The notes: generated by a model from the letters alone, not told the origin. 62,583 bases of DNA from an uncultured Thermoplasmatales archaeon (GCA_965563795.1 CBEXJS010000001.1:1-62583); one strand, 5' to 3'. Counted from the stretch's first letter, positions 5,439 to 62,077 are shown. Made by a program: numbers and translations.

Positions 5439-6359
5439 CTATATACAATATTTTCCCGGTATTTTTGGGAAGAGAGTTGTATATCTTATGTCTTCAAATC
5501 CACAAATATATCTTATTAGCCTCTCTATACCTATACCAAATCCTGCAGATGGGTAAAATTTTGCTATTCTAGCAATTTGCAAATAAGCATAGAAAGCTTG
5601 CAAATTCATGCTCTTTTCTTCCATTCTCCTAACTATTCTTTCATATTCATATTCTCTCTCGCCTCCAGACAAAGCCTCCCCAAATCCCTCTGGATAAATT
5701 AAATCCATATCAACTAACCATCCTTTTCTATCTTCATATTCCTTATCATAAAATTCTCTCTTCCATTTTGGGAAATCTATAATCCAAAATGGCTCTTTCT
5801 CTTCTTTGGATAGCATCTCCTCATAATCTTTGCCATATTTATTATAAGCTTCTTCGAAACTTATTCTTTTGAATGGCTTTGATGGAATTTTTATTTCTCT
5901 TCCCAAAATCTCAAGCTCTTCTTTGCATTCCTCCCTCAATTTTTTAAATAAATGGATTAACATATCTTCTGCTAACTCCATAACATCTTCTCTACTTGCA
6001 TTTCTTACTTCTAAATCAAGCTGTGTAAATTCTGCTAAATGTCTCCCTGTTTTTTCTAAATCTTTTAGCTCAAGCCTTATGTTGGGAGAAAAGCAAAAAA
6101 TTTTTTCTAATGATAGCAAAGCCAACTGCTTATGAAAAATCATGCTTTTAGTCAGATAATATTTATTTCCATAGTAATTTATCTCTCCATCAAAAACAGG
6201 ATGAGCCAATGGATCTGTTATAGGAGAAATGATAACAGGAGCTATTTCCACAAATCCTCTTTCCAGCAAGAAATCACTTAATATCTTCCTAACTTTGCTT
6301 CCAATTTTTACAGCTATCTTCGCCCTCTCATCAACTTGAAAATATATTTCTTCCAGCAT
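5439..6359 (-). CDS. Class-II aaRS catalytic-core paralog without anticodon-binding domain: archaeal AsnA-type asparagine synthetase (AsnRS/AspRS-like)
   Basis: The 306-aa ORF carries class II motif 2 (GRHLAEFTQLDLE) and motif 3 (GFGIGIERL) but has no N-terminal OB domain. A divergent Lrp/AsnC gene lies next to it. Confidence 0.6.
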   Translation of the reverse strand: MLEEIYFQVDERAKIAVKIGSKVRKILSDFLLERGFVEIAPVIISPITDPLAHPVFDGEINYYGNKYYLTKSMIFHKQLALLSLEKIFCFSPNIRLELKDLEKTGRHLAEFTQLDLEVRNASREDVMELAEDMLIHLFKKLREECKEELEILGREIKIPSKPFKRISFEEAYNKYGKDYEEMLSKEEKEPFWIIDFPKWKREFYDKEYEDRKGWLVDMDLIYPEGFGEALSGGEREYEYERIVRRMEEKSMNLQAFYAYLQIARIAKFYPSAGFGIGIERLIRYICGFEDIRYTTLFPKIPGKYCI

Positions 6360-6431
6360 AATTCTGATTTTATTTGATATATTTATTCATTTTGATGGGA
6401 ATTTTGTAAATTTGTCAAAAAAATAACAAAA

Positions 6432-6458
6432 TTTATATAAAAATTTGTCATTTTGACA
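6432..6458 (+). promoter_or_regulatory. lrp promoter: TATA box (tttatata, 6432-6439) followed by a perfect 13-bp palindrome TGTCA-TTT-TGACA (6446-6458) that abuts the ATG
   Basis: Read directly from the sequence. A further TGTCA half-site lies at 6413-6417. The TATA-to-ATG spacing of about 20 nt implies a leaderless mRNA with the palindrome over the transcription start. Confidence 0.5.
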
Positions 6459-6459
6459 T

Positions 6460-6900
6460 ATGGATGAAAAGGATTTTGCAATTTTAGAAAAACTTATGGA
6501 AAATGCGAGAAAGCCAGTTAAAGAAATTGCAAAAGAAGTTAAGCTTCCAAGAACAACAGTAGCAGAGAGAATTAAAAAGTTAGTTAATAAAGGCATAATT
6601 AGGAAATTTACCACTATCCTAAATTATGAAAAAATTGGAATGCCAATAACAGCTTTTATCCTCGTTTCCTTTATACCCAATCCAGATATATCACAAAGAG
6701 AGTTAGCAAGAGAAATTTCAAAAATAGAAAATGTTAGGGAAGTCTATATCATTGCAGGAGAATGGGATTTATTGCTTAAAGTTAGAGGAAAGGATATGGA
6801 AGAAATAGGAAAACTTGTATTAGATAAACTTAGAGGTATGAAAGGTGTTGGCAAAACAATAACTTGCACTTGCTTTAGTGTCATAAAAGAAGAAATGTGA
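6460..6900 (+). CDS. Lrp/AsnC family transcriptional regulator
   Basis: The 146-aa ORF has an N-terminal HTH (DEKDFAILEKLMENARKPVKEIAKEVKLPRTTVAERIKKL) and a C-terminal RAM/AsnC domain. Confidence 0.9.
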   Translation: MDEKDFAILEKLMENARKPVKEIAKEVKLPRTTVAERIKKLVNKGIIRKFTTILNYEKIGMPITAFILVSFIPNPDISQRELAREISKIENVREVYIIAGEWDLLLKVRGKDMEEIGKLVLDKLRGMKGVGKTITCTCFSVIKEEM

Positions 6901-6986
6901 GATTATTAATGAAAGGAGTGTTGGCAGATTGCTTATAAATAGCCACCATGGAAAAATATGAAAAATAAGGGGTTGATGAAAAATTA

Positions 6987-7164
6987 AAATGAAATGAATG
7001 TTGTTATGGCATATTTTCTCATGTGATAACAGCCAATGGCAATAATTCATTCATTCAACACACCCGGAAAATAATTTGTTATTGGCTTTACATCATAAGA
7101 GAATTATCCTGCAACATCTTATTGCATGGAAGAAATTTACTATGGCAACATTCAATTTCATTTT
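6987..7164. repeat. Inverted pair of the intergenic palindromic repeat family (about 178 bp, MITE/REP-like)
   Basis: The left unit is 6987-7038 (aaaatgaaatgaatgttgttatggcatattttctcatgtgataacagccaatg). The right unit is 7119-7164 (ttattgcatggaagaaatttactatggcaacattcaatttcatttt). The ends are mutually reverse-complementary. A weaker extra unit lies at 6908-6950. Confidence 0.7.
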
Positions 7165-7222
7165 CAACAGTCTCAAATTGGTATTGCAACAAAAAATATA
7201 ATTAGATACTGCTTTTTCTTTC

Positions 7223-9010
7223 ATGAAAAGGATAGTTGTAGCCATACTGGTTTTTGCATTATTACCATCACTTACAGGCTATAATAGCGTAAAAATTTCA
7301 CAAAATGTGGGGGGACAAGAAGAGATAATATATTCCGAGGCTGTCTCTGGCTACTTAATGCAGGCTGGTTATCCAGTTTTGCCATATATAGCAAAAACTT
7401 ATGAATTTCCGCTCGGAACAAAAATAGAAGTAAAAGTAGAAGTTATGGAAATAGAAGAAAAGGAAGTAGATAAAATTAAAATTGCAAATCCTCCGAAAAT
7501 TGATGGACTCGAGGACATAAAACTGAATTTTAAGCCAAAGGAATTTGAAATATATCCTCAGAAATGGTATGAGTATAGCATTGGAATAGGAAGAAGAAAC
7601 GGAAAATTAATGACTATCTTAAATCTATATCTTTATCCAAATAGAGTAAGGAAAGACGGCATTCTTTTGCATGCAAATAAATTTGCTATTAAAATAAATC
7701 ATGACAAAATTTATTCATATAGCTGTAAAGATGAATATGATTTGGTTATAGTTTATCCTCAGAAATGGGAAAATTCTTTAATTCCATTAAAGGAGCATAA
7801 GGAAAAATATGGAATAAGAACTCTTATGATGCCAATTGAAGAAATTTTGTCTAAGTATGAAGGAAGAGATGATGCAGAGAAGTTGAAGTATTTCATTAAA
7901 GATGCTTTGGAGGAATATGGAATAAAATATGTTTTGCTTGTTGGAGGAAGAAAATTTGGATTTAAAGAGGAATGGTATGTGCCAGTTCGCTATAGCCATT
8001 TAAACGATGGCTCAAATTGGGAGGCAAGTTATCTTTGCGACTTATATTTTGCAGACATATATAAATATGAAGATGGAAAACCAGTTTTTGATGACTGGGA
8101 TAGCAATGGAAATGGAGTGTTTGGCGAGTGGAGCTTCAAAGGAAAAGATTATCTAGATTTATATCCAGATGTATATATTGGAAGATTACCATGTAGAAAT
8201 GAAAAAGAAGTAAAGATAATGGTTGATAAAATTATTACATATGAAACCCAACCATTTGAAGAATTTTACAATTTTATTCTTGTTGCTGGAGATTCATACA
8301 ATGATAGCCATGGATTCATTGAGGGGGAGCTTGCAACATGGGAAGCATATAAGCAATTAAGCAATAAGTTTAAAGCCATAAAAGTCTGGGCTTCTGAAGT
8401 TGATTTAAATGCAAAGAATATAGGAAATGCTTTAAATGGTGGAGCTGGCTTTGCTTATTTCTGTGGGCATGGCAATCCAATGAGTTGGAGTACCCATGAG
8501 CCATATAACTTTGATGAGTGGGAAGATGGCTACCAAATATGGGATATGCCTTTCTTAAAAAATGGATATAAGTTACCCATTGTTGTAATAGGAGGTTGTC
8601 ATAACAGCCAATTTAATGTTTCAATTTTCAATTCATTTGACAAAGAAAAAATATGGAAGGGAGAAAATGCCCCAGAATGCTGGAGCTGGTGGCTTACAAG
8701 GAAAATAGGAGGGGGAGCAATAGCAACGATAGGCAATACTGGATTGGGCTATCATGGAAGCGAAGATGAAAATAATGATGGAATAGCAGATTATCTGCAG
8801 GTTTTAGACGGCTGGCTTGAAATAAATTTCTTCAGGCTCTACAATGAAGGCATAGACATGCTTGGAATGCTTCATGGAGAGACGCTGTCAGGATTTATAG
8901 ATACATTTCCTGGAGATGATAAAATGCCCCTCAAAGATACAATAGATATAAAGGTTGTTCAAGAATGGTGTTTGTTAGGAGATCCAAGTTTAAAAATAGG
9001 AGGATATTAA
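7223..9010 (+). CDS. Secreted clan-CD cysteine peptidase, C25 (gingipain)-like
   Basis: Has an N-terminal signal peptide (MKRIVVAILVFALLPSLTG). Candidate His/Cys dyad contexts are FCGHGNP and VIGGCHNSQF. YVLLVGG and GRLP motifs are typical of the C25 family. Confidence 0.55.
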   Translation: MKRIVVAILVFALLPSLTGYNSVKISQNVGGQEEIIYSEAVSGYLMQAGYPVLPYIAKTYEFPLGTKIEVKVEVMEIEEKEVDKIKIANPPKIDGLEDIKLNFKPKEFEIYPQKWYEYSIGIGRRNGKLMTILNLYLYPNRVRKDGILLHANKFAIKINHDKIYSYSCKDEYDLVIVYPQKWENSLIPLKEHKEKYGIRTLMMPIEEILSKYEGRDDAEKLKYFIKDALEEYGIKYVLLVGGRKFGFKEEWYVPVRYSHLNDGSNWEASYLCDLYFADIYKYEDGKPVFDDWDSNGNGVFGEWSFKGKDYLDLYPDVYIGRLPCRNEKEVKIMVDKIITYETQPFEEFYNFILVAGDSYNDSHGFIEGELATWEAYKQLSNKFKAIKVWASEVDLNAKNIGNALNGGAGFAYFCGHGNPMSWSTHEPYNFDEWEDGYQIWDMPFLKNGYKLPIVVIGGCHNSQFNVSIFNSFDKEKIWKGENAPECWSWWLTRKIGGGAIATIGNTGLGYHGSEDENNDGIADYLQVLDGWLEINFFRLYNEGIDMLGMLHGETLSGFIDTFPGDDKMPLKDTIDIKVVQEWCLLGDPSLKIGGY

Positions 9011-10188: not shown

Positions 10189-11117
10189 TTTATTCTCCTC
10201 TGCTTTCCCCTTCCCAACAAAACAACTCTTGAATCTTCTCTTTCAGCTTCAATTTCATAGCCAAGTAGCTCTGCCAGCTTTTCTCCAAATTTTTTTATTT
10301 CTTCATGACTTGGCATATTATCAAGCTTCATTCTCTGGCGAGAATACCCTACAAACATATAACCTTTTGGTTCAATAAACCATGGATTTGCTCTTTCATC
10401 TAACTTTGCATATTCTTTTTCATGTCCCAAGTTCCAATATTTTACCAATGTATGCCTTATCACGGTTCTTGTATCTAAGCTATTTAATAACTCAAGTGTT
10501 TCCATTAATTTTTCCCATCCTTTAGGCACTAAAGGACAACACAATTTCTTATAAATTTCTTCATTTGGCGCAGCAACAGTAACGTAAAGTTGCTTTGGCA
10601 ATACATCCATCTCCTCCAATGCTTTTGGATTTGTTCCATTTGTCACCAAAAACGTAGTCATTCCTCTTTTATGGCATTCTTCAAAAAAATCACTAAGATA
10701 GGGATATAATGTTGGCTCCCCTGTCAATGAACAAGCAACATGCTTTGGTTCCATAGCTTCCTTCCATTTTTCCAAACTAACTCTTTCATCTCCTTTATAT
10801 CCAGTTAGCAATCTTCTCTGCTCTTCTATACTCTTTTCTAAAATAAAAGCAGGGTCATCAGCATCTTCTTTTTTCAACTCTGTTAAAGTGAAAGCTTGGT
10901 ATCGCCAGCAATAAAGGCATTTTTGTGTGCAATGAAATGCAGTTGGAGACATTTGTAAGCAGCGATGGCTTTCAATTCCATAAAACGTATTTTTATAGCA
11001 GGGCTTATTTTCTAACAAAGATTTTCTGAGCCAGTGGCAAAGCTTAACTGCAGAATGCTTGCCAACTATAGCATATCCCTGCTCTTCAAGTATTTTCTTT
11101 ATGTCATCAAATTGCAT
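10185..11117 (-). CDS. taw1: tRNA 4-demethylwyosine synthase (radical SAM, TYW1/Taw1)
   Basis: Has the radical SAM cluster CTQKCLYCWR, an N-terminal extra-cluster Cys region (KLCHWLRKS ... KPCYK) and SLTGEPTLYPYL. Length is 310 aa. Confidence 0.75.
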   Translation of the reverse strand: MQFDDIKKILEEQGYAIVGKHSAVKLCHWLRKSLLENKPCYKNTFYGIESHRCLQMSPTAFHCTQKCLYCWRYQAFTLTELKKEDADDPAFILEKSIEEQRRLLTGYKGDERVSLEKWKEAMEPKHVACSLTGEPTLYPYLSDFFEECHKRGMTTFLVTNGTNPKALEEMDVLPKQLYVTVAAPNEEIYKKLCCPLVPKGWEKLMETLELLNSLDTRTVIRHTLVKYWNLGHEKEYAKLDERANPWFIEPKGYMFVGYSRQRMKLDNMPSHEEIKKFGEKLAELLGYEIEAEREDSRVVLLGRGKQRRIK

Positions 11118-11160
11118 GAGTTGATAAGCAGTATATTAAAAAAATATTGTGCTTGCTATT

Positions 11161-11268
11161 GAAATATAGAAGGGGTTGTTATTGGACTCTCTCATGCAAT
11201 AATATGTTATTTTTTCATTCTCGTAAGGAAATTAAAAGATAACCAATGCAACCATTCTCTTTCATTTA
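11161..11268. repeat. Degenerate copies of the intergenic repeat family
   Basis: The sequences gaaatatagaaggggttgttattggactctctcat and ccaatgcaaccattctctttcattt resemble the family core and arm. The match is weaker than at other loci. Confidence 0.35.
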
Positions 11269-11319
11269 TTTGGCAGCATTAATCACCAAGTTTATTAAAA
11301 ATTAGGGCATTATTCTTTC

Positions 11320-12183
11320 ATGAAAGCAGTAATTCCTGCTGCTGGACTGGGCACAAGATTTCTTCCAATGACAAAAAATACGCCAAAGGAAATGCTCCCT
11401 GTCGTGGATAAGCCAGCTATTCAATATGTTGTGGAGGAAGCAATAAATTCTGGAATTGATGATATAATTATAATTACTGGAAGAGGAAAAGAAGTCATTG
11501 AAAATCATTTTGATGTTGCCTATGAGCTGGAGAAAATATTGGAAGAAAGGGGAGAAAGAGAGAAGCTGGAAGAAATAAGGAGAATTTCGGAGTTAGCAGA
11601 TATTTTTTATGTAAGGCAGAAAAAAGCTTTAGGTTTAGGACACGCAATTTATAAGGCAAAAAAACTCATTGGAGATGAATTTTTTGCTGTATTGCTTGGA
11701 GATGATATTATAGTCGCGAGAAAACCATGCATTTTGCAACTTAAGGAAGTTTATGAAAAATACAACGCAACTGTTATTGCTGTGCAAGAGGTGGAAAAGG
11801 AAAATGTGAGTAAATATGGAATAATTGAAGGAGAGGAAGTAGAAGAAGGAGTATATAAAGTAAAAAGGCTTGTTGAGAAGCCATCATTGGAGGAGGCTCC
11901 ATCAAACATTGCAATAATGGGAAGATATATTTTATCGCCATTTATTTTCGAATGCATTGAAAGAACAAAGCCAGGAAAAAACAATGAAATTCAGCTTACA
12001 GATGCATTAAATCTTTTACTTGAAAAGGAAGATATATACGCAATAAAATTTGATGGAAAAAGATATGATTTGGGAGACAAATTTGACTGGCTTTGCATAA
12101 ACATTGAGATGGCATTGCAAAGGGAGGAATTTAAAGAAAAGCTAATTGATTATTTGAAAAAGCTATTAAATTATGTAGGCTAA
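11320..12183 (+). CDS. galU: UTP--glucose-1-phosphate uridylyltransferase
   Basis: The N-terminus MKAVIPAAGLGTRFLPMTKNTPKEMLPVVDKP is the canonical GalU nucleotide-binding signature, and VEKP is also present. Confidence 0.85.
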   Translation: MKAVIPAAGLGTRFLPMTKNTPKEMLPVVDKPAIQYVVEEAINSGIDDIIIITGRGKEVIENHFDVAYELEKILEERGEREKLEEIRRISELADIFYVRQKKALGLGHAIYKAKKLIGDEFFAVLLGDDIIVARKPCILQLKEVYEKYNATVIAVQEVEKENVSKYGIIEGEEVEEGVYKVKRLVEKPSLEEAPSNIAIMGRYILSPFIFECIERTKPGKNNEIQLTDALNLLLEKEDIYAIKFDGKRYDLGDKFDWLCINIEMALQREEFKEKLIDYLKKLLNYVG

Positions 12184-21629: not shown

Positions 21630-21676
21630 TGGGAATAAAAGATAGCTATAAATTATTTTTTTCTGTGAAAAAATTA

Positions 21677-21800
21677 AAATGAAATGGGGTTGCTATAGCT
21701 TTTTCATAACAATAGCCATATGATATTGGTTTAAATAATTTAAATAAAATAATGAAAGGAGATGTTGCTATAGCAATTCCTTATACAATAATAGCCAATG
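21677..21800. repeat. Two direct copies of the short subtype of the intergenic repeat family
   Basis: Copy one is 21677-21719 (aaaatgaaatggggttgctatagctttttcataacaatagcca). Copy two is 21750-21800 (aataatgaaaggagatgttgctatagcaattccttatacaataatagccaatg) and includes the perfect 12-bp palindrome TTGCTATAGCAA. Confidence 0.7.
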
Positions 21801-21931
21801 TCATTTAAATTTACCAGACTTTCACGGTTAAAACCAGCCCAGTAAAGAATACTCTTATCCATTCTTCATTGTTTTTATTCTTCTTTTTCCTATAATGAAA
21901 AGTTTAAATGATGTTATGGAATAAGTAAAAG

Positions 21932-23608
21932 ATGGATATAGAAAAGATAGCGAGAAAATATGCTTTGCTTAATGCTATTAAATATAGAGGGAAAGCAAAT
22001 TTTAAAGCAGTTATTGGCAAGGTAATGGGAGAGATAAAAAAAGATGCAAAAGAAGTTATTCCAATTGTTAAAAAAGTGGTTGAAGAAATAAATAGCTTAT
22101 CTTTAGAGGAACAAGAAAAAGAAATTGAGAAGCTCGGAATAAGAATTGAAGAAAAGAAGAAAGAGAGGAGGAAGTTACCTCCTTTGCCTCATGCCAAAAA
22201 AGGAGAAGTTGTTACTAGATTCCCTCCAGAGCCAAATGGTTATTTGCATATAGGGCATGCTAAAGCTGCTTTTATTGACTATGAATATGCTCGCATATAC
22301 GATGGAATTTTTATTCTTCGCTTTGATGATACGAATCCTGTTAATGAAAGAAAGGAATTTTATGATGCTCAAAAAGAAGATTTAAAATGGCTTGGAATAG
22401 ATTGGGATAAAGAATATCGCACATCAGATAATCTTCCAAAACATTACGAGTTTGCTAAACAATTGCTAGAAGAGGGAAACGCATATATATGCACATGTAG
22501 TGAGGAAGAAATAAGGAAAAATAGAAGAGAAATGAAGGAGTGTAAATGCAGAAATGAAAGCCCTTATGAATGGGATGATTTTATAAAAATGAAGGAAGGA
22601 CAGGCTGTTATGCGTTTAAAAGGAGATATGTCTTCGCCAAACACCGCAATGCGGGACCCAGTGCTTTTTAGGATAATAGAACATCCTCATCCAATACATG
22701 GAACTCGCTTCCGCGTATGGCCTACATATGATTTTTATGGAGCTGTAGAAGATTCTATATCGGGCGTAACCCATCCTTTTAGGAGTAAAGAATATGAGTT
22801 AAGGGATGAAGTCTATTTTTATTTACTTGATTTACTAGGCTTAAGGAAGCCTCATTTAATGGAGTTTTCTCGCTTGGAAATAAGGGGAATGCCTGTATCA
22901 AAAAGAAAAATTAAGCCATTAATTGAAGAAGGAAAAGTAATGGGATGGGATGACCCAAGGCTTCCTACTTTAAGAGGACTTAGAAGGAGGGGAATAACAG
23001 CAGAAGCCATAAAAGAATTTGTTCTTGCCCAAGGCATTTCGAAATCAGAAAGCATAGTAGCTTTTGAAAACTTGGAGGCTATAAATAGGAAAATTTTGGA
23101 TGCCAAAGCAAAAAGATATTTCTTTGTTCCTGAACCAGTAAAAGTTACTGTAAAAAATGCTATTGAAAAAGAAATTGAGCTAAAATGCCATCCTTCCATT
23201 GATATGGGAAAAAGAAAGTTAAGAGTAGGGAAAATATTTTACATTCCTAGGGAAGATGCAATTAAGCTAAAAGAGGGACAAACATTTAGACTCAAGGATT
23301 TGTATAATGTGAAGGTTTTAGAAAAAAAGGGCAATGAGATTTTTGGCGAATTTGCTGGAGAGAAATTAATAGCAGGTGTAGAAAAAATTCAATGGGTTGG
23401 CCTAGATTATATTGAAATGGAGATTATGGTTCCTTCTCTACCTTTTAAAAATGGAGAGTTCGATGAAAACAGTTTGAAAATAATAAAAGGATATGCTGAA
23501 AAAAATATTGAAGAAGTTAAGCATGGAGAGGTAATACAGTTTGAAAGATTTGGTTTTGTAAGAATTGAAAAAGGGAAAGATATTATAGGTATTTTAGCGC
23601 ATCGTTAG
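21932..23608 (+). CDS. gltX: Glutamyl-tRNA synthetase (archaeal type)
   Basis: Has the HIGH motif NGYLHIGHAKAA and the KMSKS-equivalent VSKRK. Length is 558 aa. Confidence 0.85.
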   Translation: MDIEKIARKYALLNAIKYRGKANFKAVIGKVMGEIKKDAKEVIPIVKKVVEEINSLSLEEQEKEIEKLGIRIEEKKKERRKLPPLPHAKKGEVVTRFPPEPNGYLHIGHAKAAFIDYEYARIYDGIFILRFDDTNPVNERKEFYDAQKEDLKWLGIDWDKEYRTSDNLPKHYEFAKQLLEEGNAYICTCSEEEIRKNRREMKECKCRNESPYEWDDFIKMKEGQAVMRLKGDMSSPNTAMRDPVLFRIIEHPHPIHGTRFRVWPTYDFYGAVEDSISGVTHPFRSKEYELRDEVYFYLLDLLGLRKPHLMEFSRLEIRGMPVSKRKIKPLIEEGKVMGWDDPRLPTLRGLRRRGITAEAIKEFVLAQGISKSESIVAFENLEAINRKILDAKAKRYFFVPEPVKVTVKNAIEKEIELKCHPSIDMGKRKLRVGKIFYIPREDAIKLKEGQTFRLKDLYNVKVLEKKGNEIFGEFAGEKLIAGVEKIQWVGLDYIEMEIMVPSLPFKNGEFDENSLKIIKGYAEKNIEEVKHGEVIQFERFGFVRIEKGKDIIGILAHR

Positions 23609-24405
23609 TAAAAAGCTAAACTACCTTCTTTCATTGCCTTTTCCAGTCCTTTTCTTAATGAATATATACCTAAAATTACAAAAATCGAAGAAATGAGAAT
23701 TAGGATAACTAAGTATTGAATAGATTCTGAAGGAGAAACTATAGAAATTCTCATCCCTTCTATTGAATAGTAAAAGGGTACAAATTTTGCTACTCCTTGC
23801 AAATATTTTGGCAATATGCTAACCGGAAAGTATACACCGGAAAAAAACATGCTTATGTTTTGTATCAAGGGTATGGTTTGACCAATATTTTTAATCCATA
23901 TAGTTAATCCACTGAAAATCATTCCCAGCCCAGCCATCATTATAATGGAAACGAGGAATATGAGAAGGGTATACATGTTAGCCATGAAATATGCGTGGTA
24001 TATGAAATAGCCTACGCTTAGAAAAATAACTGTTGATATTAGCCCCATAAAGCATCCAAAAATGGTATAGGCAATAACTATTGTTAACAAGCTTGTTGAA
24101 GATAAAAGAATTGATTCTAAAGTACCAATCATCATTTCATTTCTTAGTGCTATGGAGGAGGAACTCATTACAGTCCATAAAAAGCTCCATCCTATACTTC
24201 CTATTAATAAATAAGTAACAAAATCCTGCTTGTATGGAATTAAAGCATCTGGTGTAGTTTCTTTAAACATACTTCCAAAAAGTATGAAATAAAAGAGGTT
24301 GAAAATCATATTTAAAAACATGGCTGAAAATGCCAATCTATATGTCATAAGTATTTTGAAATCTCTTTTTATGATTATTCCGATTTTTTTAATTTCTCTT
24401 ATCAT
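23605..24405 (-). CDS. ABC-2 type transporter permease
   Basis: The 266-aa ORF has 6 TM helices and overlaps the ATPase gene upstream. Confidence 0.7.
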   Translation of the reverse strand: MIREIKKIGIIIKRDFKILMTYRLAFSAMFLNMIFNLFYFILFGSMFKETTPDALIPYKQDFVTYLLIGSIGWSFLWTVMSSSSIALRNEMMIGTLESILLSSTSLLTIVIAYTIFGCFMGLISTVIFLSVGYFIYHAYFMANMYTLLIFLVSIIMMAGLGMIFSGLTIWIKNIGQTIPLIQNISMFFSGVYFPVSILPKYLQGVAKFVPFYYSIEGMRISIVSPSESIQYLVILILISSIFVILGIYSLRKGLEKAMKEGSLAFY

Positions 24406-25300
24406 TTTTAACCACAGCCATAAATATATCTTCTAAACTCGGCTCTACAGTTTTAATGCTATTTATTTTTATATCTTCATTTTCCATCATTTCTGCCAAT
24501 TTTTTAATTATTTCCTCCACATTTTTTGTTTTTATCTCCACCATATTCCCTTCTATTTTTTCTGCTATCCCTGCCAATTTTTCTGGATTTTCACAGTCTA
24601 CAATGATTTTTTTATATTCCCAATATTTTTTCTTTAATTCATTTACCTTTCCTTCAACAATTTTTTTTCCTTTATTTAGTAAAAGTATTCTGTGGCACAT
24701 TTCTTCAATTTCATAAAGATTGTGAGAGGTCCATATTATGGTTTTGTCTTTAAATTCTCTTCTTATTAGTTCCTTTATTTCGTAGGCAGTAAGAGGGTCT
24801 ATTCCAGTTAATGGTTCATCTAAAAATAGGATTGGAGGGTCATGAAGCAAAGCAACAGCTAAAGCTAACTTATGCTTCATTCCCGTTGAATATCTCATTA
24901 AAAGCTCATTTTCATAATCTTTTAAATTAAATAACTCTAGCAAATAATCTATTCTTTCATTTATATTTCTTAGCCCTCTCATTTTAGCAAAAAACTCAAG
25001 ATTTCCTCTTCCAGTCAAACGCCAGTATAAAGCCCTTGTAAATTCTCCTGCCACCACACCAATAATTTTTTTTACCCTATCTGCGTCTTTCACAACGTCA
25101 TATCCATTTATATATGCATTCCCTTCATCTGGAAGGATTAGCGTAGATAAGATTTTTACAGTTGTTGTTTTTCCAGCCCCAGTTGGACCAATTATTCCGA
25201 ATATTTCTCCCTTTCTGACATTAAAAGAGAGTTTATCTATTGCTTTTAATTCTTTTTTCTTTCTCCTATATATTTTTGTTAAATTTTTTGCTTCTATCAC
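24389..25300 (-). CDS. ABC transporter ATP-binding protein
   Basis: Has Walker A GPTGAGKTT, the signature YSTGMKHKL and Walker B ILFLDEP. Confidence 0.9.
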   Translation of the reverse strand: MIEAKNLTKIYRRKKKELKAIDKLSFNVRKGEIFGIIGPTGAGKTTTVKILSTLILPDEGNAYINGYDVVKDADRVKKIIGVVAGEFTRALYWRLTGRGNLEFFAKMRGLRNINERIDYLLELFNLKDYENELLMRYSTGMKHKLALAVALLHDPPILFLDEPLTGIDPLTAYEIKELIRREFKDKTIIWTSHNLYEIEEMCHRILLLNKGKKIVEGKVNELKKKYWEYKKIIVDCENPEKLAGIAEKIEGNMVEIKTKNVEEIIKKLAEMMENEDIKINSIKTVEPSLEDIFMAVVKNDKRN

Positions 25301-25389
25301 TCTATTTGCATCTTTCTAACTATAAAAAATTTTACTTATTTCTGGGCCGAATATAATGAAGGAGATAGTTTGTCATTTGCTTGTTGCAT

Positions 25390-25640
25390 AAAAATTTGCT
25401 ATAACGACTTTACAATTCATTTTAATTTTGGGATTTTCTCTGTATTTAACTGGAAGAAGCAATTGCATTGGCTATTTATTGCATATGAGGGATTTACTAT
25501 GGCAACCTCTCTTTTCACTTTTTGATTGCATTAGTTATATCACATGATGAAGAATTAAGCCACAACAAATGAATTCTTTTTCGAGATTGATTAAAAATTA
25601 ATGAATTGGATGTTGCCATAGTAAATTCCTTGCAAGCCAA
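25390..25640. repeat. Cluster of three units of the intergenic repeat family
   Basis: The units are 25390-25424 (aaaatttgctataacgactttacaattcatttt), 25466-25518 (cattggctatttattgcatatgagggatttactatggcaacctctcttttcac) and, inverted, 25601-25640 (atgaattggatgttgccatagtaaattccttgcaagcc). Confidence 0.7.
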
Positions 25641-25716
25641 ACAGCTTTATCTTTCATTCATTCGGTAAATGAATTCTTTTTCATTAAATTTATAAATGCT
25701 TTTTTGATAAAACTTC

Positions 25717-25932
25717 ATGATAAAAGAATTTAAATCATCTTCGGGAGATATTGTAATCAAAATTGATTATGATAAATGCACCGGCGCAGCAAAATGCGTT
25801 GAAGTTTGCCCTGTTGATATATATGAAATTGAAAATGGAAAGGCAGTTGCAAAGAATGTAGATGATTGCATTGAATGCTGTGCTTGCGTTGAATCTTGTC
25901 CAAATAATGCTATAGAGCATAGCTCTTGCTAA
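25717..25932 (+). CDS. 2x[4Fe-4S] ferredoxin
   Basis: Two cluster motifs are present, CTGAAKCVEVCP and CIECCACVESCP. Length is 71 aa. Confidence 0.85.
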   Translation: MIKEFKSSSGDIVIKIDYDKCTGAAKCVEVCPVDIYEIENGKAVAKNVDDCIECCACVESCPNNAIEHSSC

Positions 25933-29760: not shown

Positions 29761-29814
29761 GCATATCTTATTGGCATATAATATAAAAAAGTTATATATA
29801 AGAGGAATCGAGGA

Positions 29815-29882
29815 ATGAAAAAGAATGTTACTATTGCTATCATCGCATAGAAAGAATTACTCAACAATATTCCTTTTCATTT
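29815..29882. repeat. Compact inverted pair of the intergenic repeat family
   Basis: The sequence aatgaaaaagaatgttactattgctatcatcgcatagaaagaattactcaacaatattccttttcattt has ATGAAA/TTTCAT arms at both ends. Confidence 0.5.
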
Positions 29883-29959
29883 GCTTTTGATGGTTAAGGA
29901 AATTGTATTTTCCTTTCTTCCTTCCCATACTTTTTTATAACATTCGCTTTTCTTTAAAC

Positions 29960-32603: not shown

Positions 32604-33209
32604 CTATTTTCTTTTTCCATAAAGCATAACAACGTCATAGTATGCAACTCTCTTTTCATGAAATGGCAGGGATGCCTTTATTGGAAATTTGTACTCTTTT
32701 TCCATAAGTATTTCCCATTCATTTTTTTCAACCATCTTTTTTATAAAATCAACACTCTCTTTTAAATGCAAAGAATAAAATGCTTTGCTTATTTCCATTG
32801 CTTTCATAACAAATTTTCTATCTGATTTTCTATTTGCATATTGGGCTCCAAAAGGAGGATTCATTATGACAACATCTCCTTTTTCATTAAACTCCTCTAC
32901 ATCCATAACATAAAAATCTATATTTATTCCGAATTTCTCCACCTCTTTTTTTGCAATAGCAACAAGCTTTTCATCTATATCTACAGCTATAACCTTCTTT
33001 GCTTTTAATAAAGCGGAACCAATAGCAAAAATTCCTGTTCCACATCCCAAATCAATAACAATCTTATTTTCAATATCTCCATTATAATAAGCAGTCCATA
33101 AAATATCTGCTGCTATGCTCGCAGGCGTTGTATATTGTTCAAGCTCTGCTTTTATTTCTTTTGGCTTTTCTATGCTCTCCAGCAATATTTCTAAATCTTT
33201 CTTTTTCAC
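32604..33209 (-). CDS. Class I SAM-dependent methyltransferase with NPPF motif (METTL5-like)
   Basis: Has the SAM motif I DLGCGTGIFAIG and the catalytic NPPFG. Length is 201 aa. Confidence 0.55.
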   Translation of the reverse strand: MKKKDLEILLESIEKPKEIKAELEQYTTPASIAADILWTAYYNGDIENKIVIDLGCGTGIFAIGSALLKAKKVIAVDIDEKLVAIAKKEVEKFGINIDFYVMDVEEFNEKGDVVIMNPPFGAQYANRKSDRKFVMKAMEISKAFYSLHLKESVDFIKKMVEKNEWEILMEKEYKFPIKASLPFHEKRVAYYDVVMLYGKRK

Positions 33210-33252
33210 ATCTTTAATTGCTTAAACATAAATAAGTTGTTGCGATGGTTTA

Positions 33253-33320
33253 ATGAAAAATGGTGCTGTTGATGACAAATATAAGGTAAGGGAATTGCTA
33301 TAGCAGCATCTCCTTTCATT
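33253..33320. repeat. Compact inverted pair of the intergenic repeat family
   Basis: The sequence is atgaaaaatggtgctgttgatgacaaatataaggtaagggaattgctatagcagcatctcctttcatt. Confidence 0.55.
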
Positions 33321-33541
33321 ATAGGCAAAATATCATGGAATATCTCTCTTTTTCGACTGTGGTTATAACCACGTGGGTTTGGTTGAGGAAGCTTCTTAGC
33401 TATGGATGAAGTAGTCATAATGTGGCTTCGCCACGAATAGGTGTATATCATAAAGGAATAAAAATTGAAATTGCATATAAAAAGAGAGGCGGGCTTTACA
33501 TAGGTGTTGAAAAAATGAAAGAGAAGGTTTCATTAGCTTCT

Positions 33542-33585
33542 TTGCATGGAATGAAATTTACTATGACAGCACTCCCATTTCGTTT
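33542..33585 (+). repeat. Solo unit of the intergenic repeat family
   Basis: The sequence ttgcatggaatgaaatttactatgacagcactcccatttcgttt closely matches the units at 7119-7164 and 52169-52210. Confidence 0.65.
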
Positions 33586-33623
33586 ATTTTTCATCAACCT
33601 CCATTTTCATGAATCAAATTTGG

Positions 33624-39443: not shown

Positions 39444-39529
39444 TCAAAATTGTATGAATTGGAAATATATTAAATTTTCAGGTCTAATGAAATTCGCTGA
39501 TTAAATGGAAGAATTAGTTGTCACTGGCA

Positions 39530-40894
39530 TTATTGCACGAAAAAATTGCATGGCATTGAATACCAATCATTTTCATTCGTATCCCTTATTTTTTGGATAT
39601 CAACATCTATAAAGAATGGCTTTAAATAGAATTCTATGGTTAAAACGGTGTTTAGTAAGTAAGATATAAAAATGATTTGCAATCCATTTTGTAACGGATT
39701 CAATTTAAATAGCAAATATTCAAAAATGCTTATTTGCCTCTCTATTTCAATTTCACAATGTCCTTCTAAATCTATTTTTTTATCATTAATAAAATAACCT
39801 TCTATTTCTCCTGGACATTCATATAAAATGAGTTTATCCCAATAAAAGGAATCCAAATAATCTTTGTATAAATGGGGATTTTTATTCATTTTCATTATCA
39901 AAACAAGTTTTCCATTTCCTTCTGCAACCAATTTTATTTTTGTTGGAATGTATGTTCCCTCACAAAAAACACCATCCAAATATTCATAGTGTATTTTTCC
40001 AAGCTCTACAATTTCTTTTCCATCATATAAATAAACAATTCCAAATTTTATTTCTTCTAACCAAAAAGGAATTGCTCCATAGAAAAGAGACCATCCATTG
40101 TCAAAAGATGCCCAGCACCAATCATATCCAAATGGATTATTGGATGCTAAAGTTATGGAATTTATACTTATATTTTTGTTTTTAATCCACCAATCGAATA
40201 GGCAGAGATAATGCGAGATTGTTTTTCCTTTTAATGGCTTGTTATAGCTCCAATTTCCCCATACATGTTCAAAATATCCTGTTCCTTCTACTTTTTCAAA
40301 AGTTCTATTAATTTTTATCCATCCTTTTACTCTGCATTTTGGAATGAATGAATATTTGTAATATCCAAATCCCATTGGCAAAATGCCCCCTTCATCTTCT
40401 AAAACAAATTTTGGTTTTGATTCCGCTTTTAGCTCCAACTCAACAATAACACCTTTATTCTCTAAGTGAACCAAATATTTTGGATACCTTCCTTTCATCC
40501 ATGAACTTTTGTATGAAATATTTACCTCATATTTACTGTTGCATTTAATAGTAGAGACATCATCTTCATATGAGCCCAAATCATATGTTTTATTTTCATC
40601 CCAATCAAAAAGAGTAAAGAATAAATTTGCAGCAGGCGTCTCTTTTTCATACTCAAAAGATGCTGTAATACTGTAATTTTTTTCTCCTCTTACAAAAGCA
40701 TCAACATTCCACCACTCTCTAATGCAATCATGCCATCCATCATTTCTCATATTCCATCCTTTTTCTTTATCTATAGCATAACTATATGGCATCATCAGAA
40801 TTATTGAAATAATTAGGCAAAATCTTTTCACAACCTTATAAAGTATTGAATTAAAAAATGTGTTGGTAAAATATGCTTTGTCTTTATTGTTCAA
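39530..40894 (-). CDS. Hypothetical secreted protein (possible AttH/CrtC-like lipocalin fold)
   Basis: The 454-aa ORF has an N-terminal signal-anchor and the Trp-rich segment EWWNVDAF. The assignment is weak. Confidence 0.3.
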   Translation of the reverse strand: MNNKDKAYFTNTFFNSILYKVVKRFCLIISIILMMPYSYAIDKEKGWNMRNDGWHDCIREWWNVDAFVRGEKNYSITASFEYEKETPAANLFFTLFDWDENKTYDLGSYEDDVSTIKCNSKYEVNISYKSSWMKGRYPKYLVHLENKGVIVELELKAESKPKFVLEDEGGILPMGFGYYKYSFIPKCRVKGWIKINRTFEKVEGTGYFEHVWGNWSYNKPLKGKTISHYLCLFDWWIKNKNISINSITLASNNPFGYDWCWASFDNGWSLFYGAIPFWLEEIKFGIVYLYDGKEIVELGKIHYEYLDGVFCEGTYIPTKIKLVAEGNGKLVLIMKMNKNPHLYKDYLDSFYWDKLILYECPGEIEGYFINDKKIDLEGHCEIEIERQISIFEYLLFKLNPLQNGLQIIFISYLLNTVLTIEFYLKPFFIDVDIQKIRDTNENDWYSMPCNFFVQ

Positions 40895-41049: not shown

Positions 41050-41517
41050 ATGATTTATGTATTAGATACATCAGCTATCTTATCTGGAAAGTTTTTTGGT
41101 GGTAAAATAGTTACATCTCCAAAGATTTTGAAAGAAATAAAACCAAAAGGACATTCATGGAGATTGTTTGAATATATGAAGAGCATAGGGCTTGAATTAA
41201 TTTCTCCTCCTCTGGTGGATGTTAAAAAGGTAGTGGAAGCTTCAAAAAAGACAGGTGACTACCATAATTTATCGGATGTTGATATTGATATATTGGCGTT
41301 AGCATATCATCTGAAAGGTATTTTATTAACTGATGATTATTCAATGCAAAATGTTGCTAAGGAACTGGGAATAAAATATATGGGCATAGTTGAAGAAGGG
41401 ATAAAAGAAAAGTGGAAATGGATTTATAGATGTAAATCTTGTGGAAAATATTATAAAGAATATCATAAAGAATGTCCTGTCTGTGGAGGAGATTTAAAAA
41501 GAGTGAGAAAAAGATAG
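41050..41517 (+). CDS. nob1: PIN-domain endonuclease with C-terminal zinc ribbon (archaeal Nob1-like, 16S rRNA 3'-end maturation)
   Basis: Has the PIN acidic residues (VLDTSAIL ... DVDIDILALA ... TDDYSMQN) followed by CKSCGKYY...CPVCGG. Confidence 0.65.
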   Translation: MIYVLDTSAILSGKFFGGKIVTSPKILKEIKPKGHSWRLFEYMKSIGLELISPPLVDVKKVVEASKKTGDYHNLSDVDIDILALAYHLKGILLTDDYSMQNVAKELGIKYMGIVEEGIKEKWKWIYRCKSCGKYYKEYHKECPVCGGDLKRVRKR

Positions 41518-41521
41518 ACAC

Positions 41522-41569
41522 ACCCCTTTATTTCCACTGGAAAATTTATATGCTATGATGAGTTTAAAA
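41522..41569 (+). promoter_or_regulatory. 48-bp promoter-like element, copy 1: palindrome TTTCCACTGGAAA (41531-41543) plus TATA tttatat (41545-41551), ending 2 nt before the hflX GTG
   Basis: It is the perfect reverse complement of 45933-45980, compared base by base. Confidence 0.7.
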
Positions 41570-41571
41570 TT

Positions 41572-42816
41572 GTGAAAGGGATAATATTATCAGCAAAAGA
41601 AGATACAAAAGAAATCAAGCAATTGGCAGAATCCTTAGGATATAAAATTGTAAGAGAGTTTGTGCAGAAAAGGGATAAAACCACACCTTACTATCTTGGA
41701 AAAGGAAAGATAGAAGAGGTTAAAAATTTTATTGAAGAAAATGTTGTAGATGTCATCATAGTAAATGATTCTCTTCGCCCCTCTCAATGGTACAACTTAG
41801 AAAAATTGCTTAGCACCCCTGTTTATGATAGAATCAGAATTATACTAGAGATTTTTGCAGATAGGGCTAAGAAAAAGGAGGCGAAACTTCAAGTTAAATT
41901 GGCAAAACTAAGATATGAGAAACCTTTTGTAAGGGAGTTATTTCACAAAGTTAAGAAAGGTGAAAAGGCAGGTTTCCTTGGAGGAGGAGAATATGTGGTT
42001 GCAGATTATTATGAAATGATAAAGAGGCAGATGAGAAAAATAAAAGAAGAATTAAAGAAAATTGCTAAAGAAAGAGATATTAAAAGAGCAGAAAGGAAAG
42101 AAAGAGGATTTTATATTGTTTCAATTGCAGGATATACAAATGCTGGAAAAAGTTGCTTATTAAATTATTTAACAGGAGAGAAGGTAGTGGTAGAAGAAAG
42201 GGTCTTCTCAACTCTCTCCCCAAAAGTAAGCAGATATAAGAAGAAAGGAGTCGTTCCTCTTTTATTCACAGATACGGTTGGATTTATAAAGGACTTGCCT
42301 CACTGGCTCATAGATGCTTTTCATTCTACTCTGGAAGAGATTGCATTAGCAGATTTAGTTATTGTATTAATTGATGCAAGTGATAGTATAGAAGAAATGA
42401 AAGAGAAAGCACTAACATCTATTAAAGAAATAAAGAGTTTAAAAGAAAATTCTCGTATTATTGTTGCATTAAATAAAATAGATTTGGTGGCAGAGGAAGA
42501 ATTAAAGAAGAAATTAAAAATAATGGAGGATTTTTTGGAAAGAAAATGCATTCCAATATCAGCAAAAACAGGCAAAAATATTGATTTGTTGCTGGAGGAG
42601 ATTTATAATAATCTGCCAAAGCCTGCAAGCTTAGAAATTACTTTGCCAAATTATGAAGATTCTTTTATTTCATGGCTTCATGAAAATGCTGAAATTTCTC
42701 ATTACCATTTCAATGGAGTAGTAAAAATAAGATTAAAGTGTAGTGAGAGAGTAAGAGATAGAATAATTGGAAAATGTAGGAAATTAGGAGGAGAGGTGAA
42801 AATATATGGAGATTGA
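41572..42816 (+). CDS. hflX: GTPase HflX
   Basis: Has G1 GYTNAGKS, G3 DTVGF and G4 NKID, with an N-terminal HflX domain. It starts at GTG; nearby ATGs are out of frame. Confidence 0.85.
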   Translation: MKGIILSAKEDTKEIKQLAESLGYKIVREFVQKRDKTTPYYLGKGKIEEVKNFIEENVVDVIIVNDSLRPSQWYNLEKLLSTPVYDRIRIILEIFADRAKKKEAKLQVKLAKLRYEKPFVRELFHKVKKGEKAGFLGGGEYVVADYYEMIKRQMRKIKEELKKIAKERDIKRAERKERGFYIVSIAGYTNAGKSCLLNYLTGEKVVVEERVFSTLSPKVSRYKKKGVVPLLFTDTVGFIKDLPHWLIDAFHSTLEEIALADLVIVLIDASDSIEEMKEKALTSIKEIKSLKENSRIIVALNKIDLVAEEELKKKLKIMEDFLERKCIPISAKTGKNIDLLLEEIYNNLPKPASLEITLPNYEDSFISWLHENAEISHYHFNGVVKIRLKCSERVRDRIIGKCRKLGGEVKIYGD

Positions 42817-43024
42817 AGAAAGAATTAAAAAAGATTTACAGAAATTTGAGGAAAACATTAAAGAAGTAAAAGATAAAAAAATAATAGATATGGCAAAAAG
42901 ATATTATGAAGATGCAAAATATTATTTTGCTAAGAAAGATTATTTCACCGCATTTGGCTGCATTAATTATGCTCATGGACTAATAGATGCTGTTAGAATG
43001 AAAATAGATAAGGAAAACTTTTAA
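42806..43024 (+). CDS. DUF357-family small protein
   Basis: The 72-aa ORF carries YYEDAKYYFAKKDYFTAFGCINYAHGLIDA and overlaps the hflX end. Confidence 0.4.
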   Translation: MEIEERIKKDLQKFEENIKEVKDKKIIDMAKRYYEDAKYYFAKKDYFTAFGCINYAHGLIDAVRMKIDKENF

Positions 43025-43043
43025 GCACTATTTGTTTTTGCAA

Positions 43044-43688
43044 ATGATGCATAAAATTGATTTACAAGTTGGCAAGGACATTTATAAAATAAACAAGGAG
43101 ATTGCAAATAAGATTAGAGAGTTATTAGATGAAAAAGGAGTGAAAGCTATAGATTTTATGGGTTCTATTGGCTCGGGAAAGACTCTAATAATTGAAAGAT
43201 TGATAGAATTGCTTAAAAATGAAAAAAAGATTGGTGTGATAGTTGGTGACGTAACCGGTGATGATGACTATAAAAGAATAAAGAAATATGGAGTTCAAGT
43301 AGTTAATATAAATACAGGAAAGGAGTGTCATTTAGATGCTCATTTAATTGAACATGCAATAGAGAATTTGAAACTGGATGAGATAGACTTATTATTTATA
43401 GAAAATATTGGTAATTTAGTTTGCCCAGCAGATTTTGAGTTAGGAAGTCATAAAAGAGGGGTTGTTATTTCAATAACTGAGGGAGATGATATGGTAAGAA
43501 AGCATCCTTTAATTTTTCAAATATCAGATTTTATTGTAATAAATAAAATAGATTTAGCGCCTTATATGGATGTAAACATAGATACAATTTTGAAAGATAT
43601 TGAACGAATCGCACCGAAGAAGGTATTCTTAACAGATGCAAAAAGTGGGAAAGGAATTAGAGAATTAGCAGAATGGCTTATAAATTAA
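43044..43688 (+). CDS. hypB: Hydrogenase nickel-incorporation GTPase HypB
   Basis: Has the P-loop GSIGSGKT, ENIGNLVCPA and NKIDL. The track ORF starts at TTG 43032; the first ATG is at 43044. Confidence 0.85.
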   Translation: MMHKIDLQVGKDIYKINKEIANKIRELLDEKGVKAIDFMGSIGSGKTLIIERLIELLKNEKKIGVIVGDVTGDDDYKRIKKYGVQVVNINTGKECHLDAHLIEHAIENLKLDEIDLLFIENIGNLVCPADFELGSHKRGVVISITEGDDMVRKHPLIFQISDFIVINKIDLAPYMDVNIDTILKDIERIAPKKVFLTDAKSGKGIRELAEWLIN

Positions 43689-45928: not shown

Positions 45929-45932
45929 TTTG

Positions 45933-45980: not shown

Positions 45981-45987
45981 CTCTCCT

Positions 45988-48508: not shown

Positions 48509-48573
48509 ATGAAAAAATATTTGCAATGCCATAATGCATGGAAGGGAATTTAATAACAGCACTTCTTTCATTT
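48509..48573 (+). repeat. Unit of the intergenic repeat family in a convergent (3'-3') spacer
   Basis: The sequence is atgaaaaaatatttgcaatgccataatgcatggaagggaatttaataacagcacttctttcattt. Confidence 0.6.
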
Positions 48574-48764
48574 ATTTTTTAATCATTAAATTCTAATCAT
48601 AATACAGCCCATAGAAAACAGTATAGAAGAGAATGGTTAGAAACATAAATAAAACTAAAAAATATTCAATTGGGAACATTACACCATAAATTATGAAAGT
48701 TGTGTATATTGCGAGAGATGTTAGGAAAGATAAGATTATGGGGGCAAATTTTTTCATCAATATT

Positions 48765-51962: not shown

Positions 51963-52025
51963 GCTTAGAAAAAACTCTTTCATATATATTGTTTGCTATT
52001 GTTAATGTGAAATTATAAGAAATCA

Positions 52026-52210
52026 AAATGAAATGGATTGTTGTTATAGCTTTTTCATTAACAATAGCAATGCATATTATTCTTTTTCCTGCAATTAGCA
52101 TCTTATATTTATTCAGGAATTTATGGGTTTGTTGAACAAATAGAAGAATTGGCTATCATTGGTTATTATTGCATGGAAGAGAATTTACTATGACACATCC
52201 TATTTCATTT
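52026..52210. repeat. Inverted pair of the intergenic repeat family (about 185 bp, MITE/REP-like)
   Basis: The left unit is 52026-52073 (aaaatgaaatggattgttgttatagctttttcattaacaatagcaatg). The right unit is 52148-52210 (attggctatcattggttattattgcatggaagagaatttactatgacacatcctatttcattt). Confidence 0.7.
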
Positions 52211-52440
52211 AATTTTCGACAGACCCGGAATTTATCAATAGTGACTTGTATATTATTAAGAAATCCCCCTCCTTCAATTTGTAAATTGGCTACAATGCGT
52301 ATAATAAGTCACAATGCAATTATATAAAGGGAATTTACAACATCATTAACAGTTAGGGTTATACAAATAACAAATTTGTTCATTACACAACCTAAATGTT
52401 GCATTTTCAAAAAATTTTTAAGAATTTTTAATATAATCCC

Positions 52441-61901: not shown

Positions 61902-61962
61902 TTTCTTCTGAAGTAAATTTGTGCTTATAAATTTGTTGGAAATGCTTATGCTGGGGAAATGA

Positions 61963-62038
61963 ATGAAAAATAGGATTGTTATTGACTCACTGCTATTGTA
62001 TGGAAGAAATTTATTTATGACAACACCAACTTCATTTT
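61963..62038. repeat. Compact pair of the intergenic repeat family
   Basis: The sequence is atgaaaaataggattgttattgactcactgctattgtatggaagaaatttatttatgacaacaccaacttcatttt. Confidence 0.65.
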
Positions 62039-62077
62039 CAATGACCTGGAAATGCTTTATGACCAAAAGATGAGGGC

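Follow-up and report, generated by a model that had tools for sequence, protein, structure and literature searches.

Repeats of one family occupy the spacers of the DNA analysed here (the window, 62,583 nucleotides). The family is probably, at a probability of about 0.8, a MITE, i.e., a non-autonomous DNA transposon of about 100–105 nt, residing in an uncultured Thermoplasmata archaeon. This reading is based on target duplications, on one filled/empty site and on subfamilies of 90–94% identity that lie in different flanks. MITEs are defined as small elements (50–800 bp) with inverted ends of at least 10–15 bp, duplications of 2–10 bp and a transposase acting in trans (PMC11602168). The present elements are 95–107 nt long, contain frame-breaking indels and no consistent coding sequence, and end in arms of about 40 nt. 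Target-site duplications were detected together with one clean case of presence/absence polymorphism, and 15 copies are dispersed over 62.6 kb, mainly in intergenic DNA. The first-pass annotation had described the repeats as REP/MITE-like and not simply a promoter. The MITE part of this description is supported; the REP part is not, given the length of about 100 nt, the duplications of 8–11 bp and the lack of covariation.

Host and genomic setting

The archaeal origin of the window follows from an archaeal SRP RNA and two tRNAs scoring above threshold in Rfam. Its G+C content is about 32%. The GluRS encoded in the window shares 99% identity with a protein from an ENA metagenome assembly and 74–92% identity with proteins of MAGs labelled 'Thermoplasmata/Thermoplasmatales archaeon'. 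Because of these GluRS homologues the host is placed, on sequence grounds, in an uncultured Thermoplasmata lineage, and it is taken not to be a methanogen; Methanocaldococcus, which the AT-rich archaeal context had suggested, was thereby rejected. The nearest public sequences are short metagenome contigs, namely L064 (99.5% identity) and L003 (98.2%). According to family scans, the window genes are ordinary housekeeping genes. Intergenic DNA makes up 10% of the window.

Copies in the window

The core motif TTGYYATAGYAA, with up to one mismatch, matches the window 33 times against 5.6 expected, and none of 100 shuffles gave as many matches. This six-fold enrichment, together with significant profile matches, confirms that the repeat family is real and beyond chance. 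A profile made from the units listed earlier recovered 13 of them at E values of 1e-7 to 1e-13. The full-length profile of 105 positions, mostly built from copies outside the window, found 15 window copies at E<1e-3, in line with the ten or more loci claimed; one of them (39492–39579) was absent from the earlier list. Among the copies previously listed as weak, 11161–11268 is weakly supported (E 0.0025 and 0.048), while 917–947 (E 0.43) and 6908–6950 (E 0.24) are not significant. A left-arm profile match at 32852–32894 (E 1e-4) is regarded as a look-alike; it is part of a methyltransferase gene, in which it codes for the catalytic motif DVVIMNPPF. The copies are as follows (E values refer to the full-length profile unless indicated).

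6972..7066, + strand: full-length, short subfamily; E 2.4e-17, model positions 3–104; RNA fold z −2.55
7118..7163, − strand: left arm and centre of a second element; E 1.3e-9, positions 17–63
11170..11276, + strand: probable, strongly decayed copy; two pieces, E 0.048 and 0.0025
21671..21718, + strand: short, internally deleted; E 6.6e-4 (full-length profile), E 6e-8 (unit profile)
21746..21803, + strand: left arm, centre and start of the right arm; E 2.2e-10; perfect palindrome TTGCTATAGCAA at 21765–21776
25346..25428, − strand: diverged, near-full-length; E 3.5e-8, positions 11–97
25448..25522, − strand: long subfamily; E 8.4e-11, positions 15–90
25587..25668, + strand: near-full-length; E 5.5e-12
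29812..29888, − strand: compact full element with both arms; E 2.4e-8
33247..33322, − strand: compact full element; E 4.7e-6, positions 16–94
33503..33599, − strand: full-length, decayed; E 6.4e-18, positions 3–100; RNA fold z −0.66
39492..39579, − strand: newly found copy; E 1.1e-9, positions 16–101
48509..48581, − strand: compact full element; E 9.8e-6, positions 9–88
52020..52071, + strand: short, internally deleted; E 3.8e-4 (full-length profile), E 7e-8 (unit profile)
52125..52225, − strand: best-scoring full-length element of the window; E 7.4e-24, positions 2–103
61953..62037, − strand: compact full element, preceding the point at which a class I tRNA synthetase gene truly starts; E 5.2e-7

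All 15 significant copies are intergenic, as claimed earlier, with 39492–39579 overlapping the last ~16 codons of an ORF; the chance of such placement is about 1e-15. The copies cover 1136 of the 6329 intergenic bases of the window (18%). The convergent spacers reported earlier to carry copies could not be found in the new gene map, where the convergent window genes abut or overlap.

Structure of the element

When copies were aligned with their flanks, conservation ran well past the 50–60 nt first ascribed to the unit. The real element is about 100–105 nt, and the shorter unit corresponds to its left arm and centre. Full elements are 95–107 nt long, and an alignment of 37 copies gave a consensus of 105 nt, GnGTTnGTCnAAAAATAAATGAAATGGGATGTTGTCATAGTAAATTnnCTTnCATGCAATAATAGCCAATGACAACCATTTCTTTCATTTATTCAACAAACCC. 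As a whole it is an imperfect palindrome, whose two ends are inverted repeats of about 40 nt (CGGGTTCGTCGAAAAATAAATGAAA..TGTTGCCAT ... ATRRCAACC..TTTCATTTATTCGACAAACCCG). The left arm reads CGGGTTCGTCGAAAAATAAATGAAA-N4-6-TGTTGYCAT and the right arm is roughly its reverse complement; left arms do align with reverse-complemented right arms. The outer arm is CGGGTTYGTCGAAAAWTAAATGAAA, and the centre is an asymmetric segment of about 25 nt, AGTAAATTCTCTTCCATGCAACA. Of the motifs described previously, 'AAAATGAAAT...TGTTGCCATAG' corresponds to the left arm; 'ATAGCCAATG' and 'TTTCAT' both belong to the right arm, the former at its inner end. The proposed pairing of the ATAGCCAA tail with the core holds as geometry: it is the inner terminal inverted repeat, which is 89.6% paired. 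This pairing reflects the symmetry of the arms; a conserved RNA switch is not indicated.

The perfect 12-bp palindrome at 21765–21776, earlier regarded as the centre of the unit, exists, but it is peculiar to that copy and is not the dyad axis. The family consensus at this site is TTGYCATAGTAA, and no more than one or two copies have a palindromic core. The latter bears on the suggestion that the repeats are operators, with TTGCTATAGCAA as the putative site of a palindrome-recognising DNA-binding protein that would regulate many genes. Besides the palindrome itself, the enrichment of the core motif (33 matches against 5.6), the position of most copies upstream of genes and an Lrp/AsnC-type regulator gene adjoining one cluster speak for such a role. 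However, conservation extends over about 100 nt with indels, far beyond the needs of an operator, the neighbouring genes are functionally unrelated, and target duplications with an empty site indicate insertion. The operator explanation is thus given very little credence.

Three arrangements had been distinguished: solo units, compact inverted pairs and inverted pairs of about 180 bp. The 'compact inverted pairs' of 65–80 bp are actually single full-length elements with both terminal arms visible. The '180-bp pairs' (6972–7163 and 52020–52225) do contain two neighbouring elements in opposite orientation, which are adjacent or nested. Window copies have lost internal segments or parts of their arms, and some were inserted next to or within one another. 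Decay and nesting explain the three forms. Several subfamilies have amplified, and most of the window copies are old and decaying. For instance, the copy at 7118–7163 continues as a degenerate remainder to about 7075 (7075–7127, E 0.034). The internally deleted copy at 21671–21718 is also found in the same-species contigs L003 and L064. The copy at 25587–25668 is orthologous to L004 1878–1975; the flanks of the two are 89% identical, but the element is far more diverged and has indels. Its divergence beyond that of the flanks argues against constraint on the element sequence.

The elements are non-coding: their lengths spread evenly over the three residues modulo 3 (12, 11 and 14 copies), and stop codons occur in every frame. 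The opposite suggestion, that they are short coding repeats or remnants of gene 5' ends in which ATGAAA and the hydrophobic-looking codons after it would specify small peptides, can draw on short ORFs in some copies (e.g., MKGDVAIAIPYTIIANVI and a stop at 21750), on at least one stop-free frame in 20 of 37 copies and on the copy that supplies the last ~16 codons of an ORF. The palindromic elements of Methanocaldococcus have likewise been proposed to be 'with coding potential'. Against this, indels ignore the frame, a stop comes straight after ATG in many copies (ATG AAA TGA at 6987, ATG AAA TAG at 52211), and any one frame is open in at most 10 of the 37 copies. A coding origin is therefore considered extremely unlikely.

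Distribution beyond the window

A strict 21-base pattern, which matches the window three times, was searched against one genome per prokaryotic species. It gave one true further copy, in the Thermoplasmatales MAG L002, and one chance match. A looser pattern was used for metagenome contigs, in which the full-length profile finds copies in at least 29 stretches (120 matches listed). Among the matches listed, all copy-bearing metagenome stretches have 31–36% G+C and most come from two sister samples; the 11 viral stretches among these matches contain no copy. Comparison of the consensus with plasmid and phage collections by blastn gave no match. At the available search sensitivity, the elements are neither viral nor plasmid-borne.

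The wider count takes in the window, L002, the metagenome stretches listed, and L003 and L004, which were reached via the GluRS gene. Profile searches gave at least 75 matches and at least 58 distinct copies in the window and related contigs, and the merged full-length matches number at least 80 in 35 sources, the window included. At least about 68 further copies lie outside the window, in 34 related MAG, assembly and metagenome contigs. The host range is narrow: among the sequences searched, copies occur solely in contigs of close relatives with 31–36% GC. In two relatives, whose GluRS identities are 83% and 82%, the 21 kb searched per relative is free of copies, and the orthologous spacers are short in both.

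Evidence for transposition

The search for target-site duplications was positive. Exact direct repeats of 8 bp or more flank 12 of 34 copies, whereas 0.99 such copies are expected from mismatched left/right flank pairs (maximum 4 in 1000 permutations). Repeats of at least 9 bp occur in 9 of these 34 copies (0.30 expected). The duplications are AT-rich and 8–11 bp long. The element at 52125–52225 is bounded by a perfect 9-bp direct repeat, ATAAATTCC, and further examples are TTAAAAATC, AATAAATTC, GATTAATATG and TATAAAAACGA. Near-identical 9-bp repeats flank 6972–7066 (GAAAAATAA on the left, GGAAAATAA on the right), and this element appears to have been inserted beside or into a neighbouring copy. 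A clean duplication is seen in only about a third of the copies, and in a few (L108 3653, window 25587) the termini are not sharply defined because the repeated flank continues into the end of the element. Apparent duplications of 15–21 bp around L002 3140 and L122 3316 were rejected as arms of adjacent elements.

Presence/absence polymorphism was confirmed in the pair L083 and L033. The filled site in L083 has a 95-nt element between two copies of TATCCCAG (8 bp). The empty site in L033 has one TATCCCAG, no element and the same flanks. With the element and one TATCCCAG removed, L083 is colinear with L033 across the junction (184/208, 88.5% identity). This is the only clean filled/empty pair found, and its two contigs are about 88% identical and do not represent strains.

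Subfamilies of 90–94% identity, compared with a family median of 61%, are found in unrelated flanks with different duplications. Examples are the copies of L004, L110, L109 and L106, and the window element 52125–52225 with those of L079, L086 and L044. Such subfamilies represent recent amplification.

These data also bear on the reading of the repeats as REP/BIME-type or IS200/IS605-related sequences, in which a Y1/RAYT-type tyrosine transposase recognises a hairpin of single-stranded DNA. The elements are indeed palindromic, intergenic and abundant, some form adjacent inverted pairs, and no transposase gene lies nearby. However, Y1 transposition is not known to make a target duplication, and here flanking repeats of 8–11 bp and a filled/empty site with an 8-bp duplication were observed. 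In addition, the element has about 100 nt with 40-nt arms and is not a hairpin of 20–40 nt, changes in its stem are uncompensated, and the Y1 transposase domain was not found in scans of the window. A REP or IS200/IS605 origin is accordingly rated as very improbable, and the MITE interpretation is preferred.

Hairpin structure

Each unit had been predicted to form a hairpin. RNA folding bears this out for intact copies, which form one long hairpin (z −4.7, −5.1, −2.9 and −2.6), but not for two full-length window copies (z 0.23 and −0.66). Over 37 copies, 71.6% of 1069 cells of the whole-element hairpin pair, against 30–49% with slid partners, and two inner helices pair at 84.5% and 89.6%. Compensatory changes were sought in the same copies, and the hairpin proved to be without covariation. 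RNAalifold gave 0 consensus pairs for the 37 copies. Shuffling the 3' letters between copies gives 72.9%, so that the pairing of 71.6% is no excess; for the covariation score, the observed value is 0.127 and the mean of the shuffles 0.144, with 490 of 500 shuffles at least as high. In an alignment-free duplex permutation, arms of the same copy paired no better than arms of different copies (p about 0.2–0.7). No wobble excess was seen on the modelled strand (78 G.T versus 110 A.C).

A small inner stem noticed by eye, between the N4-6 segment and the segment after the core, was likewise rejected, showing no excess over shuffled or between-copy controls; the pairing seen by eye is due to ATGG/CCAT-type complementarity in the consensus. 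In Rfam, no family matches the element, the above-threshold matches of the window being limited to the SRP RNA and the two tRNAs. Sensitive Rfam scans of two element clusters returned only generic hairpins at 17–21 bits against thresholds of 45–83.

In an alternative view the fold itself is maintained, the elements being either non-coding RNAs with a defined structure or hairpins that act in cis, for example as terminators, processing sites or stability elements. This would agree with intact copies folding far below shuffled controls (z −4.7 and −5.1), with the T-runs that often border the element and with the complementarity, apparent by eye, of the variable segment after AATGAAA and a segment downstream of the core. 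It is opposed by the absence of RNAalifold pairs, by pairing and covariation no better than in shuffles, by the decayed state of window copies (z 0.23 and −0.66), by the occurrence of both orientations relative to neighbouring genes and by the lack of an Rfam match. Such a function is considered very improbable, and selected RNA structure is not supported. The palindrome is a property of the ancestral sequence, and changes in it are uncompensated, which fits decaying transposon ends and not a selected RNA or DNA hairpin.

Mobilisation of the element

By analogy with DDE transposases and their MITEs, a transposase encoded elsewhere would bind both arms and excise or copy the element. The latter would be inserted at a staggered cut 8–11 bp wide in AT-rich intergenic DNA, and repair of the stagger would leave the flanking direct repeats. 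Duplications of 8–11 bp are typical of the staggered cuts made by DDE transposases. The mobilising enzyme and its type are putative, as would be any effect on neighbouring genes.

The earlier statement that the window contains no transposase is borne out by scans of all likely genes against Pfam or NCBIfam, a set that leaves out the 2253-aa ORF 52441–59202 and a few short ORFs. In about 208 kb of contigs that carry elements, an arm-only profile detected no arm pairs 0.6–3.5 kb apart with a transposase between them. Metagenome assemblies tend to break at insertion sequences, which would therefore be under-represented in such contigs.

Integron attC sites were also considered as a source of palindromes with variable gene content. 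These sites have the form RYYYAAC/GTTRRRY and stand in same-orientation cassette arrays. The element arms do not read RYYYAAC/GTTRRRY, no same-orientation cassette arrays were seen and no integrase domain was detected in the window scans, so this candidate was rejected on anatomical grounds.

Comparison with known systems

Archaeal MITEs have been described in Sulfolobus (SM1–SM4 of S. solfataricus), Halobacterium, Haloquadratum and others (PMC10969869). Like prokaryotic MITEs in general, the present elements are small, non-coding, multicopy and mostly intergenic, have terminal inverted repeats and target duplications, lack their own transposase and are restricted to a taxon (PMC11602168, PMC10969869). 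Thermoplasmatota carry all 27 annotated IS families (PMC13343696). The present family differs from Sulfolobus and haloarchaeal MITEs in sequence and host, and its arms are unusually long (about 40 of 105 nt), making nearly the whole element a palindrome. In Sulfolobus, SM elements were reportedly tied by Redder et al. in 2001 to the ends of known IS; for the present family, by contrast, neither the window nor about 208 kb of contigs yielded a partner insertion sequence.

The closest likeness in appearance is to MJRE1–3 of Methanocaldococcus jannaschii, which are, as far as the sources describe them, also archaeal, AT-rich, palindromic and extragenic, with a length of about 100 nt (PMC2229807, PMC2996958). 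Low identity between copies and occasional overlap with coding sequence (here the ORF end at 39492–39579) are shared by description as well. The two families differ in host phylum, and they are likened by appearance, not by sequence. MJRE reportedly amount to 141 elements and 14.3 kb in the count made by Suyama, Lathe and Bork in 2005. The strict core-pattern scan of one genome per species, a weak test of homology with MJRE, gave no Methanocaldococcus match.

REPs are hairpins of 20–40 nt that produce no target duplications and are linked to a Y1 (RAYT) transposase (PMC2817692). REP/BIME sequences share with the present elements the abundance of intergenic palindromes, sometimes in alternating orientation (PMC2817692), but the latter have about 100 nt, duplications of 8–11 bp and no Y1 gene in the window scans. 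The Correia elements of Neisseria, ERIC and the Rickettsia palindromic elements are similar MITE-like, near-palindromic repeats of 100–150 nt, which can be transcribed together with adjacent genes and at times provide part of a coding sequence (PMC2229807). Promoters, IHF sites and RNase III sites have been shown in them (PMC2229807). They have no sequence relation to the present family.

The family appears to be an undescribed sequence family within the well-known MITEs, a commonplace type of selfish DNA. No report of a MITE in Thermoplasmata was found in the literature searched. Although no new kind of mechanism is opened, an active or recently active DNA transposon system is documented in an uncultured Thermoplasmata lineage. 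Filled/empty sites make the family a strain-level marker, and the arm sequence is a handle for locating the mobilising transposase in complete genomes.

Consequences for annotation

Constituting nearly a fifth of the intergenic DNA of the window, the family matters for annotation. Such DNA could be mistaken for small RNAs, operators or short ORFs, or could give rise to spurious 5'/3' extensions of genes, as exemplified by 61953–62037 and 39492–39579. In the former case, ORF 59292–62102 (− strand, 936 aa) is a class I tRNA synthetase whose domain begins at residue 79; the 5' stretch of the ORF that runs through the element is therefore spurious. In the latter, ORF 39530–40894 (− strand, 454 aa) has no family match, and its last ~16 codons and stop lie inside the element. 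In this ORF, the element may have lengthened the original C-terminus or taken its place.

Variable spacers and neighbouring genes

Several spacers differ in content between related genomes. Downstream of AAAAAAGTTATA.. (window 29800–29907; junction 29803), three related genomes have three contents: the repeat element 29812..29888 in the window, an ORF with CxxC pairs in L064 (99.5% identical; 10954–11480), and a 1.5-kb cassette of three genes (RNase H-like, HhH and unassigned) in L004 (89% identical; 6107–7651). Between gltX and a small ferredoxin gene, the window (23605–25300), L003 and L064 have an ABC-2 transporter gene pair that L004 lacks; in L004 the gltX–ferredoxin spacer is 180 nt with one element (1845–2026). 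In the window, this pair adjoins the cluster of three elements. The ORF at 25740–25925 (about 60 aa), shorter than the minimum length applied in ORF calling, has two CxxCxxCxxxCP-type motifs and is ferredoxin-like, with a Fer4 call in the orthologous L004.

In L078 (194–2049), two inverted elements bracket a 1.7-kb segment with two genes, one for a secreted and one for a membrane protein. The arrangement is composite-transposon-like, and more copies flank the neighbouring FBPase gene. A 1.08-kb segment of L033 (7368–8448) is absent from the otherwise 97–99% identical L098. Its product, 345 aa long and membrane-anchored, is repetitive in the N-terminal half, and a copy of the element is located about 170 nt away from the segment. 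The segment was considered in the search for an autonomous partner of the family; judged by sequence, its product would be a membrane protein and is not transposase-like.

The above suggests that spacers bearing elements are also places of strain-variable gene content. That the elements mark, or perhaps cause, intergenic sites of gene-cassette exchange between strains is a rather unlikely extension of this. Exchange would proceed either through homologous recombination between copies or through mobilisation, in the manner of a composite transposon, by the putative transposase, which, given the 40-nt arms, might be unusual.

A separate inverted repeat of 53 nt (41517–41569 and 45933–45985) has arms that are 96% complementary and 4.36 kb apart. 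Both arms include TCCAGTGGAAATAAAGGGGT, found twice where 0.06 matches are expected; this sequence presumably resembles the consensus of the archaeal origin recognition box (ORB). Genes for HflX, HypB, TraB-like and radical-SAM proteins stand between the arms, which adjoin the gene for the small subunit of DNA polymerase II (45988–47433); no Orc1/Cdc6 gene was found in the window. The 41517–45985 inverted repeat could be a replication origin or a part of one. The ORF at 52441–59202 contains internal repeats with periods of 66–72 nt (and multiples) and 291–297 nt, and it probably encodes a large surface protein.
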